From: Escherichia coli
GTDB taxonomy: Bacteria; Pseudomonadota; Gammaproteobacteria; Enterobacterales; Enterobacteriaceae
DNA: 64,000 nucleotides
Reading direction: 5' to 3' (one strand)
Assembly (NCBI RefSeq): GCF_009931435.1
Contig: NZ_CP043414.1
Below, piece by piece: positions 8,214-51,908 of this stretch. The stretch's first letter is position 1. Each line of letters starts with the position of its first letter. The notes below the pieces were generated by a model, which saw nothing but the letters and a program-made list of their open reading frames with translations, did no database searches and was not told the DNA's origin. The position numbers were made by a program, and so were the translations under genes.

Positions 8214-10205
8214 ATGTCCTCACGTAAAGAGCTTGCCAATGCTATTCGTGCGCTGAGCATGGACGCAGTACAGAAAGCCAAATCCGGTCACCCGGGTGCC
8301 CCTATGGGTATGGCTGACATTGCCGAAGTCCTGTGGCGTGATTTCCTGAAACACAACCCGCAGAATCCGTCCTGGGCTGACCGTGACCGCTTCGTGCTGT
8401 CCAACGGCCACGGCTCCATGCTGATCTACAGCCTGCTGCACCTCACCGGTTACGATCTGCCGATGGAAGAACTGAAAAACTTCCGTCAACTGCATTCCAA
8501 AACTCCGGGCCACCCGGAAGTGGGTTACACCGCTGGTGTGGAAACCACTACAGGTCCGCTGGGTCAGGGTATTGCCAATGCAGTCGGTATGGCGATTGCA
8601 GAAAAAACGCTGGCGGCACAGTTTAACCGTCCGGGCCACGACATCGTCGACCACTACACCTACGCCTTCATGGGCGACGGCTGCATGATGGAAGGCATCT
8701 CCCATGAAGTTTGCTCTCTGGCGGGTACGCTGAAGCTGGGTAAACTGATTGCGTTCTACGATGACAACGGTATCTCTATCGATGGTCACGTTGAAGGCTG
8801 GTTCACCGACGACACCGCAATGCGTTTCGAAGCTTACGGCTGGCACGTTATTCGCGGCATCGACGGTCATGACGCGGCATCCATCAAACGCGCAGTAGAA
8901 GAAGCGCGCGCAGTGACTGACAAACCGTCCCTGCTGATGTGCAAAACCATCATCGGTTTCGGTTCACCGAACAAAGCCGGTACGCACGACTCCCACGGTG
9001 CGCCGCTGGGCGACGCTGAAATTGCCCTGACCCGCGAACAGCTGGGCTGGAAATATGCACCGTTCGAAATCCCGTCTGAAATCTATGCTCAGTGGGATGC
9101 GAAAGAAGCAGGCCAGGCGAAAGAATCCGCATGGAACGAGAAATTCGCTGCTTACGCCAAAGCTTATCCGCAGGAAGCCGCTGAATTTACCCGCCGTATG
9201 AAAGGCGAAATGCCGTCTGACTTCGATGCCAAAGCGAAAGAATTCATCGCTAAACTGCAGGCTAATCCGGCGAAAATCGCCAGCCGTAAAGCGTCTCAGA
9301 ATGCGATTGAAGCGTTCGGCCCGCTGTTGCCGGAATTCCTCGGCGGCTCTGCTGACCTGGCACCGTCTAACCTGACCCTGTGGTCTGGTTCTAAAGCAAT
9401 CAACGAAGATGCTGCGGGTAACTACATCCACTATGGTGTTCGCGAGTTCGGTATGACCGCGATTGCTAACGGTATCTCCCTGCACGGTGGCTTCCTGCCG
9501 TACACCTCCACCTTCCTGATGTTCGTGGAATACGCACGTAACGCCGTACGTATGGCTGCGCTGATGAAACAGCGTCAGGTGATGGTTTACACCCACGACT
9601 CCATCGGTCTGGGCGAAGATGGCCCGACTCACCAGCCGGTAGAGCAGGTCGCTTCTCTGCGCGTGACCCCGAACATGTCCACATGGCGTCCGTGTGACCA
9701 GGTTGAATCCGCGGTCGCGTGGAAATACGGCGTTGAGCGTCAGGACGGCCCGACTGCGCTTATCCTCTCCCGTCAGAACCTGGCGCAGCAGGAACGCACT
9801 GAAGAGCAGCTGGCAAACATCGCGCGCGGTGGTTATGTGCTGAAAGACTGTGCCGGTCAGCCGGAACTGATCTTCATCGCTACCGGTTCTGAAGTTGAAC
9901 TGGCGGTTGCTGCCTACGAAAAACTGACTGCTGAAGGCGTGAAAGCGCGCGTGGTTTCCATGCCGTCTACCGACGCATTCGACAAGCAGGATGCGGCTTA
10001 CCGTGAGTCTGTACTGCCGAAAGCGGTTACTGCACGCGTTGCGGTGGAAGCTGGCATTGCTGACTACTGGTACAAGTATGTTGGCCTGAACGGTGCTATC
10101 GTCGGCATGACCACCTTCGGTGAATCTGCTCCGGCAGAGCTGCTGTTTGAAGAGTTCGGCTTCACCGTTGACAATGTTGTTGCGAAAGCAAAAGAACTGC
10201 TGTAA
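8214..10205 (+). CDS. tktA: transketolase 1
   Basis: 663 aa starting [12 protein letters not shown]; ATG 8214 with GGAG upstream; the ORF-track start at 8184 is an over-extension. Confidence 0.97.
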
Positions 10206-10227
10206 TCGGTAAGATGCTTTGTGAGAA

Positions 10228-10423
<196 letters not shown>

Positions 10424-10425
<2 letters not shown>

Positions 10426-11332
10426 ACTTAGTAGAGATAAACGGAACTGTACTGCCGGGGATCATGGTATCGGGTAGCTTACCGTCCCAACGCTCAGCAG
10501 TGGTGAGGGCAACAAGTCCGGGATTATCCCGCAGAGCTTCACCGCGCAGGCGGATCGCTTCTGCTTCAGCCGCACTTTTTAAACGAATAGTTTCAGCCTC
10601 TGCCGCGCCTCTTACGCGAATAGTCTCAGCTTCTGCTTTGGCTGCCGCCAGTTTACTGTCTGCTTCTGCCTGGGCCTGAGTTACCGCTATTTGCGCCTGG
10701 ATTTTCTCTGTTTCCAGATTTTGCTTACGTGTGGCAATGGCGACTTCTGCTTTCATTCGATCTTCAATCGATTTTTCATAAGCGTCAGAAAAATCAATAT
10801 TTTCAATCTGGACACCATCAATCACCACCGGGCCAACAACGGCTTTACGCATTGCATTTTGCAGATCCTGAACCAGTTTTGTACGATCCTGTACCGCGCT
10901 GATGGCGGTATATTGGCCGAAAACGTTCTCCAGTTGGGTTGGCAGCTGGCGGACGATCAGACGCTCTTTTAAAGATTCAATGGTGTTGTAGGTTGTATAA
11001 ACTGCGCCAGCTTCTGAAGGCTTAATATGAAAACTAACCGACACGGTCATTTGTGCCGGTTGCTGGTCGCGGCTGTAGGCCTGTAATCCCTGATAAACCA
11101 CAGCCTGATTACGCGTGGAAATTTTCTCTACGCTTTCCATAAAAGGGATCTTAAAACCCAGACCCGGCTCGGCAACTTTTACGATTTTTCCGTAGCGCAG
11201 CAAAATGCCGCGTTCACCTTCATTAACGGTGTAATACGAGAGAAATGGCAGCACAACCACGGTAAGCACGCCAATGGCGATAGCAATAGATTTTTGTGGG
11301 CGAAATGAGGTTATTGAAACAGGCGCTTTCAT
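10424..11332 (-). CDS. SPFH/band-7 (prohibitin/stomatin-like) membrane protein
   Basis: 302 aa; N-terminal TM segment, SPFH-like core, C-terminal Ala/Glu-rich repeats (AEAETIRVRGAAEAETIRLKSAAEAEAIRLRGEA); not in the K-12 tktA-cmtB gap as I recall it. Confidence 0.8.
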
Positions 11333-24008: not shown

Positions 24009-24034
24009 GATATTCCTTTCTGCTTACCTCAAGG

Positions 24035-24223
24035 CCCGCTCTGCGGGTCTTTTTTTCGCCAAAAGCAAAATTGCCTGATGCGCTACGCTTATCAGGCCTA
24101 CATGTATCCTGCAATATACTGAATTTACAGGCTTTTGTAGGCTGGATAAGGCGTTCACGCCGCATCCGGCATGACAAAGTGCACATTGATATCTGTCTGA
24201 GCCCCGCTCTGCGGATCTTTTTT
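24035..24223. repeat. BIME (two inverted REPs) between two copies of the fbaA terminator hairpin
   Basis: cccgctctgcgg hairpin plus T-run at 24035-24056 and again at 24203-24223; REP palindromes at about 24073-24103 and 24137-24173. Confidence 0.8.
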
Positions 24224-24365
24224 CACCATAAGCAAGGTGATGCAGATGAGAAATCTGTGATCTATTTGGCAAAATTATGCTTTATTGTTTACCCTTGTCA
24301 GACTGCCCGTCATAAGGCGGCGGAGTGTATTTCTCCATTTTGAGTCAGTTGAAAAGGAATATTGA

Positions 24366-45218: not shown

Positions 45219-48092
45219 ATGACACAGACGTTAAGCCAGCTTGAAAACAGCGGCGCTTTTATTGAACGCCATATCGGACCGGACGCCGCGCAACAGCAAG
45301 AAATGCTGAATGCCGTTGGCGCACAATCGTTAAACGCGCTGACCGGCCAGATTGTGCCGAAAGATATTCAGCTTGCGACCCCGCCGCAGGTTGGCGCACC
45401 GGCGACCGAATACGCCGCGCTGGCGGAACTCAAGGCTATTGCCAGTCGCAATAAACGCTTCACGTCTTACATCGGCATGGGTTACACCGCCGTGCAGTTA
45501 CCGCCGGTTATCCTGCGTAACATGCTGGAAAATCCGGGCTGGTATACCGCGTATACTCCGTATCAACCTGAAGTCTCCCAGGGCCGCCTTGAAGCACTGC
45601 TCAACTTCCAGCAGGTAACGCTGGATTTGACTGGCCTGGATATGGCTTCGGCTTCTCTTCTTGACGAAGCCACCGCTGCCGCCGAAGCAATGGCGATGGC
45701 GAAACGCGTCAGCAAACTGAAAAATGCCAACCGCTTCTTTGTTGCTTCTGACGTGCATCCGCAAACGCTGGATGTGGTACGTACTCGTGCCGAAACCTTT
45801 GGTTTTGAAGTGATTGTCGATGACGCGCAAAAAGTGCTGGATCACCAGGACGTCTTCGGCGTGCTGTTACAGCAGGTCGGCACTACCGGTGAAATTCACG
45901 ACTACACCGCGCTTATCAGCGAACTGAAATCACGCAAAATTGTGGTCAGCGTTGCCGCCGATATTATGGCGCTGGTGCTGTTAACTGCGCCGGGTAAACA
46001 GGGCGCGGATATTGTCTTTGGTTCGGCGCAACGCTTTGGCGTACCGATGGGCTACGGTGGCCCGCACGCGGCATTCTTTGCGGCGAAAGATGAATACAAA
46101 CGCTCAATGCCGGGCCGTATTATTGGTGTATCGAAAGATGCTGCGGGCAATACCGCGCTGCGCATGGCGATGCAGACTCGCGAGCAACATATTCGCCGTG
46201 AGAAAGCGAACTCCAACATTTGTACTTCCCAGGTACTGCTGGCAAACATCGCCAGCCTGTATGCCGTTTATCACGGTCCGGTTGGCCTGAAACGTATCGC
46301 TAACCGCATCCACCGTCTTACTGATATCCTGGCTGCAGGTCTGCAACAAAAAGGTCAGAAGCTGCGCCATGCGCACTATTTCGATACTTTGTGTTTGGAA
46401 GTGGCCGACAAAGCGGGCGTGCTGGCGCGTGCCGAAGCGGCTGAAATCAACCTGCGTAGCGATATTCTGAATGCGGTGGGGATCACCCTTGATGAAACCA
46501 CCACGCGCGAAAACGTGATGCAGCTTTTCAGCGTACTGCTGGGCGATAATCACGGACTGGACATCGACACGCTGGACAAAGACGTGGCTCACGACAGCCG
46601 TTCTATTCAGCCTGCAATGCTGCGCGATGACGAAATGCTCACCCATCCGGTGTTTAATCGCTACCACAGCGAAACCGAAATGATGCGCTATATGCACTCG
46701 CTGGAGCGTAAAGATCTGGCGCTGAATCAGGCGATGATCCCGCTGGGTTCCTGCACCATGAAACTGAACGCCGCCGCCGAGATGATCCCAATCACCTGGC
46801 CGGAATTTGCCGAACTGCACCCGTTCTGCCCGCCGGAACAGGCCGAAGGTTATCAGCAGATGATCGCGCAACTGGCTGACTGGCTGGTGAAACTGACCGG
46901 TTACGACGCCGTCTGTATGCAGCCGAACTCTGGCGCTCAGGGCGAATACGCGGGGCTGCTGGCGATTCGTCATTATCATGAAAGCCGCAACGAAGGACAT
47001 CGCGATATCTGCCTGATCCCGGCTTCTGCGCATGGCACTAACCCGGCTTCCGCGCATATGGCAGGAATGCAGGTGGTGGTTGTGGCGTGTGATAAAAACG
47101 GCAACATCGATCTGACTGACCTGCGCGCGAAAGCGGAGCAGGCGGGCGATAATCTCTCCTGCATTATGGTGACCTATCCTTCCACCCACGGCGTGTACGA
47201 AGAAACGATCCGTGAAGTGTGTGAAATCGTGCATCAGTTCGGCGGTCAGGTTTACCTTGATGGCGCGAACATGAACGCCCAGGTTGGCATCACTTCGCCG
47301 GGCTTTATTGGCGCGGACGTTTCGCACCTTAACCTGCATAAAACTTTCTGCATTCCGCACGGCGGTGGTGGTCCGGGTATGGGACCGATCGGCGTGAAAG
47401 CGCATTTGGCACCGTTTGTTCCGGGTCATAGCGTGGTGCAAATCGAAGGCATGTTAACCCGTCAGGGCGCGGTTTCTGCGGCACCGTTCGGTAGCGCTTC
47501 TATTCTGCCAATTAGCTGGATGTACATCCGCATGATGGGCGCAGAAGGGCTGAAAAAAGCAAGCCAGGTGGCAATCCTCAACGCCAACTATATTGCCAGC
47601 CGCCTGCAGGATGCCTTCCCGGTGCTGTATACCGGTCGCGATGGTCGCGTGGCGCACGAATGTATTCTCGATATTCGCCCGTTGAAAGAAGAAACCGGCA
47701 TCAGCGAGCTGGATATTGCCAAGCGTCTGATCGACTATGGTTTCCACGCGCCGACCATGTCGTTCCCGGTGGCGGGGACGCTGATGGTAGAACCGACTGA
47801 ATCTGAAAGCAAAGTGGAACTGGATCGCTTTATCGACGCGATGCTGGCTATCCGCGCAGAAATTGACCAGGTGAAAGCCGGTGTCTGGCCGCTGGAAGAT
47901 AACCCGCTGGTGAATGCTCCGCACATTCAGAGCGAACTGGTCGCCGAGTGGGCGCATCCGTACAGCCGTGAAGTTGCAGTATTCCCGGCAGGCGTGGCAG
48001 ATAAATACTGGCCGACAGTGAAACGTCTGGATGATGTTTACGGGGACCGTAACCTGTTCTGCTCCTGCGTACCGATTAGCGAATACCAGTAA
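45219..48092 (+). CDS. gcvP: glycine dehydrogenase (decarboxylating), P protein
   Basis: 957 aa. Confidence 0.97.
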
Positions 48093-48114
48093 TTTACTGA
48101 TTCGACTATCTTCT

Positions 48115-48316
48115 AAAGGCGCTTCGGCGCCTTTGACACTGATGTCAAACTCAACATTGCCTGATGCACCTCGTTTATCAGGCCTACATAGTCTGTGCAA
48201 TGTATTGAATTTGCACGATCTTGTAGGCTGGATAAGGCGTTCACGCCGCATCCGGCATAATAAAAGCACTTTGTCATCAATAATTTGAAAGGCGCTTCGG
48301 CGCCTTTATTTTTTTA
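48115..48316. repeat. BIME (two inverted REPs) between two copies of the gcvP terminator hairpin
   Basis: aaaggcgcttcggcgccttt at 48115-48134 and 48288-48307 (second followed by atttttttt); REPs at about 48159-48187 and 48223-48258. Confidence 0.8.
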
Positions 48317-48325
48317 GGAAAACAA

Positions 48326-49069
48326 ATGACTATAGCACTTGTGACCGGTGGCAGTCGCGGCATCGGGCGGGCAACTGCATTACTGTTGGCGCAAGAAGGG
48401 TATACGGTGGCGGTTAATTATCAGCAAAACCTCCACGCGGCGCAGGAAGTGGTGAAGTTAATCACGCAAGCCGGTGGCAAGGCATTCGTGCTTCAGGCGG
48501 ATATCAGCGACGAAAATCAGGTCATCGCAATGTTTACAGCAATCGATCAGCACGATGAACCGCTAGCCGCGCTGGTCAATAACGCCGGGATCTTGTTTAC
48601 CCAGTGCACCGTAGAAAACCTTACCGCAGAGCGAATCAACCGGGTACTTTCCACCAATGTGACGGGATATTTTCTCTGCTGCCGCGAGGCGGTAAAGCGC
48701 ATGGCGCTTAAGAACGGCGGTAATGGCGGTGCTATCGTCAATGTCTCGTCAGTGGCTTCACGGCTGGGATCGCCGGGAGAATACGTTGACTATGCGGCAT
48801 CGAAAGGGGCGATTGATACGTTAACCACAGGGCTGTCACTGGAAGTCGCCGCGCAGGGGATCCGCGTTAACGGCGTGCGGCCAGGGTTTATTTATACCGA
48901 AATGCACGCCAGCGGTGGCGAACCTGGACGCGTTGATCGCGTTAAGTCGAACATCCCCATGCAGCGTGGCGGACAGGCGGAAGAGGTCGCGCAGGCCATC
49001 GTCTGGCTGTTAAGTGATAAAGCCTCTTATGTCACGGGAAGTTTTATCGATTTGGCGGGTGGAAAATAA
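48326..49069 (+). CDS. ygfF: short-chain dehydrogenase/reductase
   Basis: 247 aa; TGGSRGIG cofactor motif. Confidence 0.9.
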   Translation: MTIALVTGGSRGIGRATALLLAQEGYTVAVNYQQNLHAAQEVVKLITQAGGKAFVLQADISDENQVIAMFTAIDQHDEPLAALVNNAGILFTQCTVENLTAERINRVLSTNVTGYFLCCREAVKRMALKNGGNGGAIVNVSSVASRLGSPGEYVDYAASKGAIDTLTTGLSLEVAAQGIRVNGVRPGFIYTEMHASGGEPGRVDRVKSNIPMQRGGQAEEVAQAIVWLLSDKASYVTGSFIDLAGGK

Positions 49070-51750: not shown

Positions 51751-51908
51751 TGTAGGCCTGATAAGACGCGTCAGCGTCGCATCAGGCATCGGATCGCAAC
51801 TGCCGGATGCGGCGTGAACGCCTTATCCGGCCTACGGGCCGCGTCCTTGGTGTGATAAAGGCACCAAATCCCAGGCATGATAAGACGCGTCAGCGTCGCA
51901 TCAGGCAA
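51751..51908. repeat. BIME: three REP elements between convergent yqfA and ygfZ
   Basis: gcctgataagacgcgtcagcgtcgcatcaggc occurs twice (direct) flanking an inverted gccggatgcggcgtgaacgccttatccggcctac. Confidence 0.8.

Follow-up and report, generated by a model that had tools for sequence, protein, structure and literature searches.

The question raised by this locus is why a perfect 20-bp palindrome, AAAGGCGCTTCGGCGCCTTT, stands twice between gcvP and ygfF in the 64-kb stretch of Escherichia coli DNA analysed here (the window), and what each of the two copies is likely to do. The original prediction was of a terminator duplicated around a BIME, as at tktA, with the palindrome at 48115-48134 and 48288-48307; both positions proved exact, the duplication was found at both loci, and no third match was present in the window when up to three mismatches were allowed. 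The chance expectation for the palindrome was 0.01 and two or more copies were obtained in 0 of 100 shuffles. The copies are separated by 153 nt (48135-48287), in which the two inverted REPs that had been predicted were located at about 48159-48187 and 48223-48256. The features of the locus, in window coordinates, are:

45219..48092, + strand, gcvP (957 aa), from the ORF list and the RefSeq annotation of the identical allele of strain 24A16CRGN010
48115..48134, + strand, hairpin copy 1 (left duplicate), from the sequence; a local hairpin in the DNA-parameter fold
48135..48159, unstranded, left end ('A'-type) motif GACACTGATGTCAAACTCAACATTG (consensus GAGACTGATGACAAACGCAAAATTG), from the match to the consensus end
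48159..48187, unstranded, Y-type REP (palindromic unit) GCCTGATGCACCTCGTTTATCAGGCCTAC, from the inverted repeat and columns 90-99% conserved
48188..48222, unstranded, L linker of 35 nt, from an Rfam ES036/CssrF match
48223..48256, unstranded, Z1-type REP in inverted orientation, GTAGGCTGGATAAGGCGTTCACGCCGCATCCGGC, from the sequence, conserved columns and the Z1-containing search pattern
48257..48287, unstranded, right end ('B'-type) motif ATAATAAAAGCACTTTGTCATCAATAATTTG (consensus TGAACAAAGCGCACTTTGTCAGCAATCTG), from the consensus match and the alignment
48288..48316, + strand, hairpin copy 2 (right duplicate, 48288-48307) followed by A-T7-A, a terminator-like site in the terminator scan
48326..49069, + strand, ygfF (SDR family oxidoreductase), from the ORF and the annotation of identical alleles

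The genes gcvT and gcvH lie upstream with gcvP, all on the + strand in the window, and by the ORF layout the gcvP transcript continues into the hairpin/BIME-1 region. Copy 1 forms a hairpin with an 8-bp stem (AAAGGCGC/GCGCCTTT) and the loop TTCG; it is followed by GACACTG without a T-run, the sole TTT there belonging to the stem. It lacks the U-tract of an intrinsic terminator, was absent from the terminator scan output (48115-48134) and, judged on these features, is probably not an efficient terminator. Copy 2 was recovered by the scan with 8 pairs, 5 of them G-C, and the tail ATTTTTTTAG, with A and T7 at 48308-48315, and thus has the G+C-rich stem-loop and following U-tract by which an intrinsic terminator is predicted from sequence. 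That only the second copy carries a T-run and that it directly precedes the ygfF start had both been claimed, and both were borne out, the ygfF ATG at 48326 lying 18 nt past copy 2. Copy 2 and its T-run are identical to the single hairpin and T-run of the empty allele (see below), and together they are the intact predicted intrinsic terminator of the gcvTHP transcript. Because copy 1 has lost the U-tract and copy 2 keeps it, gcvP transcripts are predicted to read through, probably passing copy 1 and BIME-1 and ending at copy 2 just before ygfF. A promoter-like arrangement, TTGAAA-16 nt-TATTTT, was observed at 48285-48312, spanning the junction of the BIME-1 end and copy 2 just 5' of ygfF; it was rejected as a promoter, such sites being expected once per 600 bp by chance.

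The 216-nt region 48105-48320 gave an RNA fold of -83.8 kcal/mol (z = -7.4 against shuffles) and a DNA fold of -46.5 kcal/mol (z = -6.9 against shuffles). With DNA parameters the fold consists of two local hairpins and a long BIME-1 hairpin. The palindrome copies are also complementary to each other, and in the RNA fold copy 1 was paired with copy 2, so that the whole of BIME-1 is enclosed in one long helix.

The 153-bp insert is a canonical BIME-1 (RIP/RIB), with inverted Y and Z1 REPs, the L linker and flanking end motifs, and it is extragenic, in single copy and at the 3' end of a transcription unit (48092 to 48326). It is therefore more than the two REPs originally predicted, namely a complete BIME-1 with defined ends. 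The end motifs carry the names A and B, which we take to follow Gilson 1991 and Bachellier 1994. At the left end, 28 of 32 positions matched over the search motif (the A motif and the first 7 nt of the Y REP). The right end motif terminates in GCACTTTGTCATCAATAATTTG and pairs with the A motif in both DNA and RNA folds, the last 15 nt of the element being an imperfect inverted repeat of its first 15 nt. Between the REPs, the Rfam ES036/CssrF match extends over 48180-48222 on the minus strand and scored 38.4 bits (gathering score, 37.6); the L linker is conserved across the loci of the 39-locus alignment. Its minus strand carries AATTCAATACATTG, by eye 1 mismatch from the IHF consensus WATCAANNNNTTR, and it is on this basis a putative IHF site; no exact match to the IHF consensus was found at the three BIME-1 loci of the window. 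In published descriptions BIME-1 consists of z1 and y REPs with a long conserved linker containing an IHF site, in single copy, and the L linker binds IHF (Ton-Hoang 2012, PMC3333891).

Comparative analysis, which the original prediction had proposed as its check, yielded exact one-hairpin alleles at both gcvP and tktA. A synthetic query consisting of the gcvP-ygfF spacer minus 173 bp was run against complete E. coli genomes and matched in a single piece in three E. coli genomes, with 99.7% flank identity; strain MFDS1022581, for example, reads ...TTCTAAAGGCGCTTCGGCGCCTTTATTTTTTTAGGAAAACAAATG..., that is, one hairpin straight into the T-run and then ygfF. The filled gcvP allele is exactly 173 bp longer than the empty one (153 + 20). 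The allele of the window is itself rare, being present in 8 of 5,426 complete E. coli genomes. At tktA, the empty allele was found in FORC_031 and GPEC673 and the window is filled, with an addition of 174 bp (a 152-bp element and a 22-bp repeat); at fbaA-mscS, the one-hairpin allele is that of IHE3034 and the window is again filled; at aspC-gloC, K-12 is filled and O157:H7 is empty. The one-hairpin alleles at gcvP, tktA, fbaA-mscS and aspC carry no BIME, and in the empty alleles of gcvP, tktA and aspC the repeated sequence is, by our own reading, the maximal palindrome within about 1 nt. At the zapB locus (GTDB 'E. coli' SCPM-O-B-8794) no filled allele was present among complete E. coli genomes, which makes this locus uninformative.

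Other arrangements were also observed at these sites. K-12-type genomes have a single hairpin after gcvP, followed by a different, GC-rich repeat: in the spacer (L001 486-700, L002) the hairpin is followed by CAGATGACAAAGT, a short remnant resembling a BIME-1 end motif, and beyond it by a GC-rich imperfect palindrome of about 150 bp (…GGGGAGAGGGTTAGGGTGAGGGG…CCCTCACCCCGGCCCTCTCCC…). This palindrome had no match in Rfam and may, as a guess, be a boxC-type repeat; the MG1655 RefSeq record has no REP features annotated in the stretch compared. In B2-type genomes ygfF is missing and the single hairpin is followed by a degenerate inverted BIME-1, which in strains LR-28 (L003) and 536 (L004) runs straight into the end of bglA. 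E. coli strains thus differ in whether they carry ygfF, and the two flanks of the gcvP-ygfF junction were contiguous in no more than 3,052 of 5,425 genomes. The whole 3' neighbourhood of tktA is likewise polymorphic, since K-12 (C600, L123 857-1170) has another terminator hairpin, GGTCGCTTCGGCGACC, and the cmtBA genes, and the window (10205-10450) and about 1,200 genomes have a prohibitin-family gene in place of cmtBA. In strain RMDEC465 (L134 7882-8476) an IS621-family (IS110-like) transposase gene is found past trhA, where others have ygfZ. REPs are known targets of IS621, and this gene may have inserted in a local REP cluster.

The Rfam ES036 linker also occurs in the window at 10312-10354 and 24094-24136, and all three BIME-1 copies of the window (3 of 3) are surrounded by a duplicated, locus-specific hairpin. 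The two further loci are:

10226..10421, unstranded, tktA 3' side: AAGGGCCGCGAAAGCGGCCCTT at 10226-10247, BIME-1 at 10248-10399 and AAGGGCCGCGAAAGCGGCCCTT at 10400-10421, with a T-run
24032..24235, unstranded, fbaA-mscS BIME-1, with diverged repeat copies at 24032-24068 and 24200-24235

The tktA BIME-1 is 152 bp long and opposite in orientation to the gcvP copy, and the T-run sits after the second copy of AAGGGCCGCGAAAGCGGCCCTT. At fbaA-mscS, the direct repeat of about 37 bp comprises the fbaA terminator hairpin, its T-run and CGCCAAAAGCAA (12 more bases), so that it extends 17 nt beyond the hairpin, and the element is non-canonical, its left end motif being truncated and cut at a short similarity (CAAAAGCAA vs CAAACGCAA). 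The E. albertii orthologue of this locus (L014) is filled and has the same structure, which is therefore old. A BIME-2-type cluster at about 51751-51835 had no flanking repeat; an Rfam naRNA4 match at 51755-51832 corresponds to this BIME-2-type REP pair, 3' of the next operon. Other Rfam matches at gathering score in the window were 6S RNA (ssrS; 38097-38280, minus strand) and a Sib antitoxin RNA (37298-37448, minus strand).

Species-representative genomes were scanned with an exact 24-base BIME-1 pattern, giving 114 stretches, mostly from E. albertii, E. whittamii, two other Escherichia species, two E. coli and three Pseudocitrobacter genomes. After removal of tandem arrays and clustering of orthologues, the survey set comprised 89 copies in 66 locus clusters and, having been drawn with an exact pattern from about 9 genomes, is biased towards well-conserved copies. 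A flanking repeat was scored as a significant local alignment between the 45 nt outside each element end, and the scan was anchored on the element ends, as an unanchored scan was contaminated by orthologues and tandem arrays. A locus-specific repeat abutting both ends was found in 40 of the 89 copies (unrelated pairs, 1.2%) and is thus missing in about 55% of them; counted by cluster, it was present in 31 of 66, and in 22 of 39 with both ends canonical. Stable hairpins abutted 61% of left ends and 53% of right ends, compared with 15% for controls 70-100 nt away. Repeat and hairpin were present on both sides in 31 copies, a hairpin on one side only in 33 and none in 14. The repeat is 13-29 nt long and runs from foot to foot of a stem-loop, with an unpaired overhang of mostly 0-2 nt and up to 4. 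Judged by asymmetric loops, the repeat is direct in 23 of 24 loci, and at no locus did an inverted arrangement fit better. T-runs or A-runs occurred only outside the hairpin pair, the two orientations of BIME-1 relative to the terminator were equally common, with no orientation bias, and the hairpin sequences differed at every surveyed locus.

The same test gave a flanking repeat in 0 of 31 REP singletons and in none of the true BIME-2-type clusters; the only 'non-BIME-1' positives were a variant with the same end motifs and one tandem BIME-1. Hairpin duplication therefore goes with the end motifs and not with REPs as such. The ends themselves are sharp: when 39 independent loci were aligned together with 30 nt of flank, conservation per column stepped up from 30-40% to 70-99% precisely at the first and last positions of a 152-bp consensus of the layout GAGACTGATGACAAACGCAAAATTG-[Y]-[L]-[Z1]-TGAACAAAGCGCACTTTGTCAGCAATCTG, and the length of the element was constant at 151-153 bp in every genome surveyed. 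The consensus ends, GAGACTGATGACAAA ... TTTGTCAGCAATCTG, match by eye as inverted repeats at about 11 of 15 positions, and these terminal inverted repeats are imperfect and shorter than many IS ends. In 946 kb of compared sequence the end motifs occurred only with BIME-1, and neither an autonomous element nor a parent insertion sequence sharing these ends was recovered.

At loci with diverged hairpin copies (L012, L015/L078 and L008, from E. albertii and Escherichia sp.), the stems are kept by paired substitutions, for example GGTGGT...ACCACC vs GGTGGC...GCCACC, which suggests that both copies have been under selection, or maintained, as hairpins. Tandem arrays of [BIME-1 + hairpin] were present in L082 (173-bp unit), L084 (137-429), L015 and L085, with hairpins differing by 1-2 nt, as expected from unequal exchange between flanking repeats. 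One of these is at the gcvP site of Escherichia sp. E1V33, which reads hairpin-BIME-hairpin-BIME-hairpin (L082 1690-2070). Exact BIME-1 matches in records labelled as a Bacteroides MAG, Desulfosporosinus, Bacillus coahuilensis, a Collinsella MAG, Methylobacterium and Alkalicoccobacillus (L018, L019, L059-L061, L091-L093) lie on very short contigs and look like Escherichia contamination or mis-binning.

In our reading, the two palindromes are most likely a target-site duplication of the gcvP terminator hairpin around the 153-bp BIME-1, because the direct repeat abuts sharp ends and exact empty alleles exist, and because the pattern recurs at dozens of loci in two genera. Against it stand the roughly 55% of copies without a two-sided repeat, the failure to find an autonomous partner element in the 946 kb compared, and a few non-canonical junctions, such as that of the fbaA locus with its 37-bp repeat and truncated end. 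The presence of a hairpin-sized duplication at about half of the surveyed BIME-1 copies suggests insertion at the foot of terminator hairpins. The unusual feature is that the length of the duplication follows the structure of the target and is not fixed by an enzyme; to our knowledge, a structure-defined stem-loop target duplication has been described for no transposon. A cruciform-foot model, drawn from geometry only, could account for this. In an extruded cruciform the feet of the hairpin would be neighbours in space and a palindrome length apart in sequence; two symmetric strand transfers, one per strand, at the hairpin feet would then give a cut stagger equal to the hairpin length, and gap repair would copy the whole hairpin. 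The central IHF site could bend BIME-1 and so join its two ends. It is proposed that the duplication varies in length (13-29 nt) because the stagger is set by target structure, and that the inner hairpin copy loses its U-tract because insertion occurs at the hairpin foot. The wider proposal, that BIME-1/RIP, which belong to the most frequent repeats of E. coli, are past or present MITE-like units integrating at the feet of extruded terminator hairpins with a variable, stem-loop-sized duplication, is offered tentatively, as a possibility that we would not yet put at even chances.

Four other explanations were weighed against a target-site duplication. One is that a RAYT (TnpA-REP, a Y1 HUH transposase) inserts single-stranded BIME-1 at a hairpin foot on both strands, followed by loop repair. 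No enzymes other than RAYTs have been linked to REP/BIME, their substrate is hairpin DNA of either strand, BIMEs hold REPs in both orientations, and the target at gcvP is likewise a hairpin on both strands; we nevertheless consider this route unlikely, since IS200/IS605-type transposition leaves no target duplication, two coordinated single-strand insertions and loop repair would be required, the published model expects REP-bearing targets, and cleavage in vitro is at the CT of the GTAG/CTAC box and linkers and not at the outer end motifs (PMC3333891). Replication template switching, in which a polymerase stalled at the hairpin would copy a BIME-1 elsewhere and return upstream, would need no transposase, and none was found as a partner in the 946 kb compared. 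Hairpins are known polymerase stall sites, and the fbaA-mscS junction, inside the end motif at CAAAAGCAA vs CAAACGCAA and with a repeat reaching 17 nt past the hairpin, would fit such a switch. Ragged ends would be predicted, yet the unit is constant at 151-153 bp, the junctions fall on the same nucleotide at both ends in 39 independent loci, and the flanking hairpins have nothing in common by which the switches could be guided in sequence, all of which makes this explanation distinctly improbable.

Nor is there much probability that BIME-1 was first beside the terminator and that the second hairpin arose by later tandem duplication, through slippage or unequal crossing-over. The [BIME-1 + hairpin] arrays (L082, L084, L015, L085) and the 33 copies with a one-sided hairpin are in its favour, but tandem duplication of hairpin and BIME gives H-B-H-B, so that about 31 loci would each have to undergo an extra exact deletion; alleles with one hairpin and no BIME exist (gcvP, tktA, fbaA-mscS, aspC), and in one-sided copies the end motif is often truncated where the hairpin is missing, which fits later decay. 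Least credible of all, and given almost no weight, is that the hairpins are carried by the element or that the second copy came from fold-back synthesis (an inverted duplication). A perfect palindrome that is repeated directly is at the same time repeated in inverted form, and copy 1 is paired with copy 2 in the RNA minimum-energy fold, as fold-back would have it; the hairpins were rejected as part of the element, being locus-specific in sequence and each single in the empty alleles, and inverted duplication was rejected on the asymmetric loops, which are direct in 23 of 24 loci.

If the duplication marks an insertion, that insertion appears to be old. Haplotypes at gcvP were compared over flanks of 2.8 kb and 2.3 kb: the three empty genomes represent two haplotypes, 1.3-1.9% apart, interspersed among filled haplotypes that are themselves 1.0-2.9% apart, and the outgroup Escherichia sp. 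E1V33, 5-7% distant, is filled. The most parsimonious history of these sequences is an old insertion, with the empty alleles arising by at least two precise deletions via the 20-bp repeats; the present polymorphism at gcvP thus looks like repeated precise loss and not gain. Such a history would fit the 'excisions of a whole BIME-1' which are reportedly mentioned in the abstract of Bachellier et al. from 1997. No insertion event itself was observed in the alleles compared. BIME-1 copies within one genome are only 83-95% identical, so the insertions are old and nothing points to a recent burst. From the empty alleles and the E1V33 array we infer that the 20-bp direct repeats make the gcvP insert precisely deletable and amplifiable, respectively.

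The spread of REP/BIME repeats has been a question for about 40 years, and the authors of the current RAYT model call the mechanism unknown. Sharp ends, inverted-repeat termini and a hairpin-sized duplication lead to concrete, testable predictions: the target would be a terminator stem-loop flanked by AA...TT, the junctions would lie at the feet of the stem, and the product would be hairpin-element-hairpin. Each insertion would leave an upstream hairpin without a U-tract and place BIME-1 in the 3' UTR ahead of the real terminator. If true, integration at hairpin feet would explain the location of BIME-1 at operon 3' ends, terminator hairpins being the proposed target. The flanking repeats would render the insert reversibly deletable and amplifiable, explaining part of the small-scale intergenic polymorphism in E. 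coli. For annotation, paired terminator-like hairpins are to be expected around BIME-1, and both should not be called terminators.

Among known systems, the element at gcvP is no different from the known BIME-1 (Gilson 1991; Boccard & Prentki 1993; Oppenheim 1993; Bachellier 1994; via Ton-Hoang 2012, PMC3333891): BIME-1/RIP/RIB have the same Y and inverted Z1 REPs, the L linker, a single copy and a location at the 3' end of a transcription unit. Duplication of a hairpin or terminator, or inverted-repeat ends of BIME-1, were not found in the accessible literature, outside which lie the original descriptions of the 1990s (Boccard & Prentki 1993; Gilson 1991; Bachellier 1997). The element is thus a textbook BIME-1, and the flanking duplication and end repeats are apparently new, although they may have been described in the 1990s. 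Naville & Gautheret 2010 reported that upstream of mscS, among other genes, terminators occur in association with BIMEs, with no mention of a duplication.

REPINs, mobilised by RAYTs, resemble BIME-1 in being mobile, non-autonomous REP doublets that form old, slow populations (Nunvar 2010; Bertels & Rainey 2011; Ton-Hoang 2012). The one enzyme proposed in print for REP/BIME is the RAYT/TnpA-REP transposase, and in E. coli tnpA-REP is located in the yafL-fhiA region, beyond the window (Ton-Hoang 2012, PMC3333891). The REPIN/RAYT model follows IS200/IS605, with no terminal inverted repeats and no target duplication, and Y1 HUH transposases, the REP-linked family, are described as leaving no target duplications. 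BIME-1 differs in both respects, having a duplication in 40 of 89 copies and sharp, inverted-repeat-like ends; unlike a REPIN, its unit reaches about 25-30 nt past each REP to defined ends and is flanked by the duplication.

Bacterial MITEs such as Correia elements (Delihas 2011, PMC3184786) are like BIME-1 in being about 150 bp long and non-coding, with a flanking direct target duplication and the possibility of a long hairpin fold, and Correia elements, too, have a central IHF site. The terminal inverted repeats of MITEs have an imperfect counterpart in the ends of BIME-1 (about 11 of 15 positions). MITE duplications are short and of a length fixed by the transposase, whereas the BIME-1 repeats are 13-29 nt (37 once), are not of fixed length and follow the stem-loop. 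IS1397 and ISKpn1 (in REP loops) and IS621 and ISPpu9-10 (in REPs) have extragenic targets chosen by DNA secondary structure, as BIME-1 appears to have. The target duplication of IS1397 is 3-4 bp, and group IIC introns insert after terminators. Such hairpin-targeting elements insert within or beside the hairpin without duplicating the whole structure, in contrast to BIME-1, at which the stem-loop is repeated from foot to foot.
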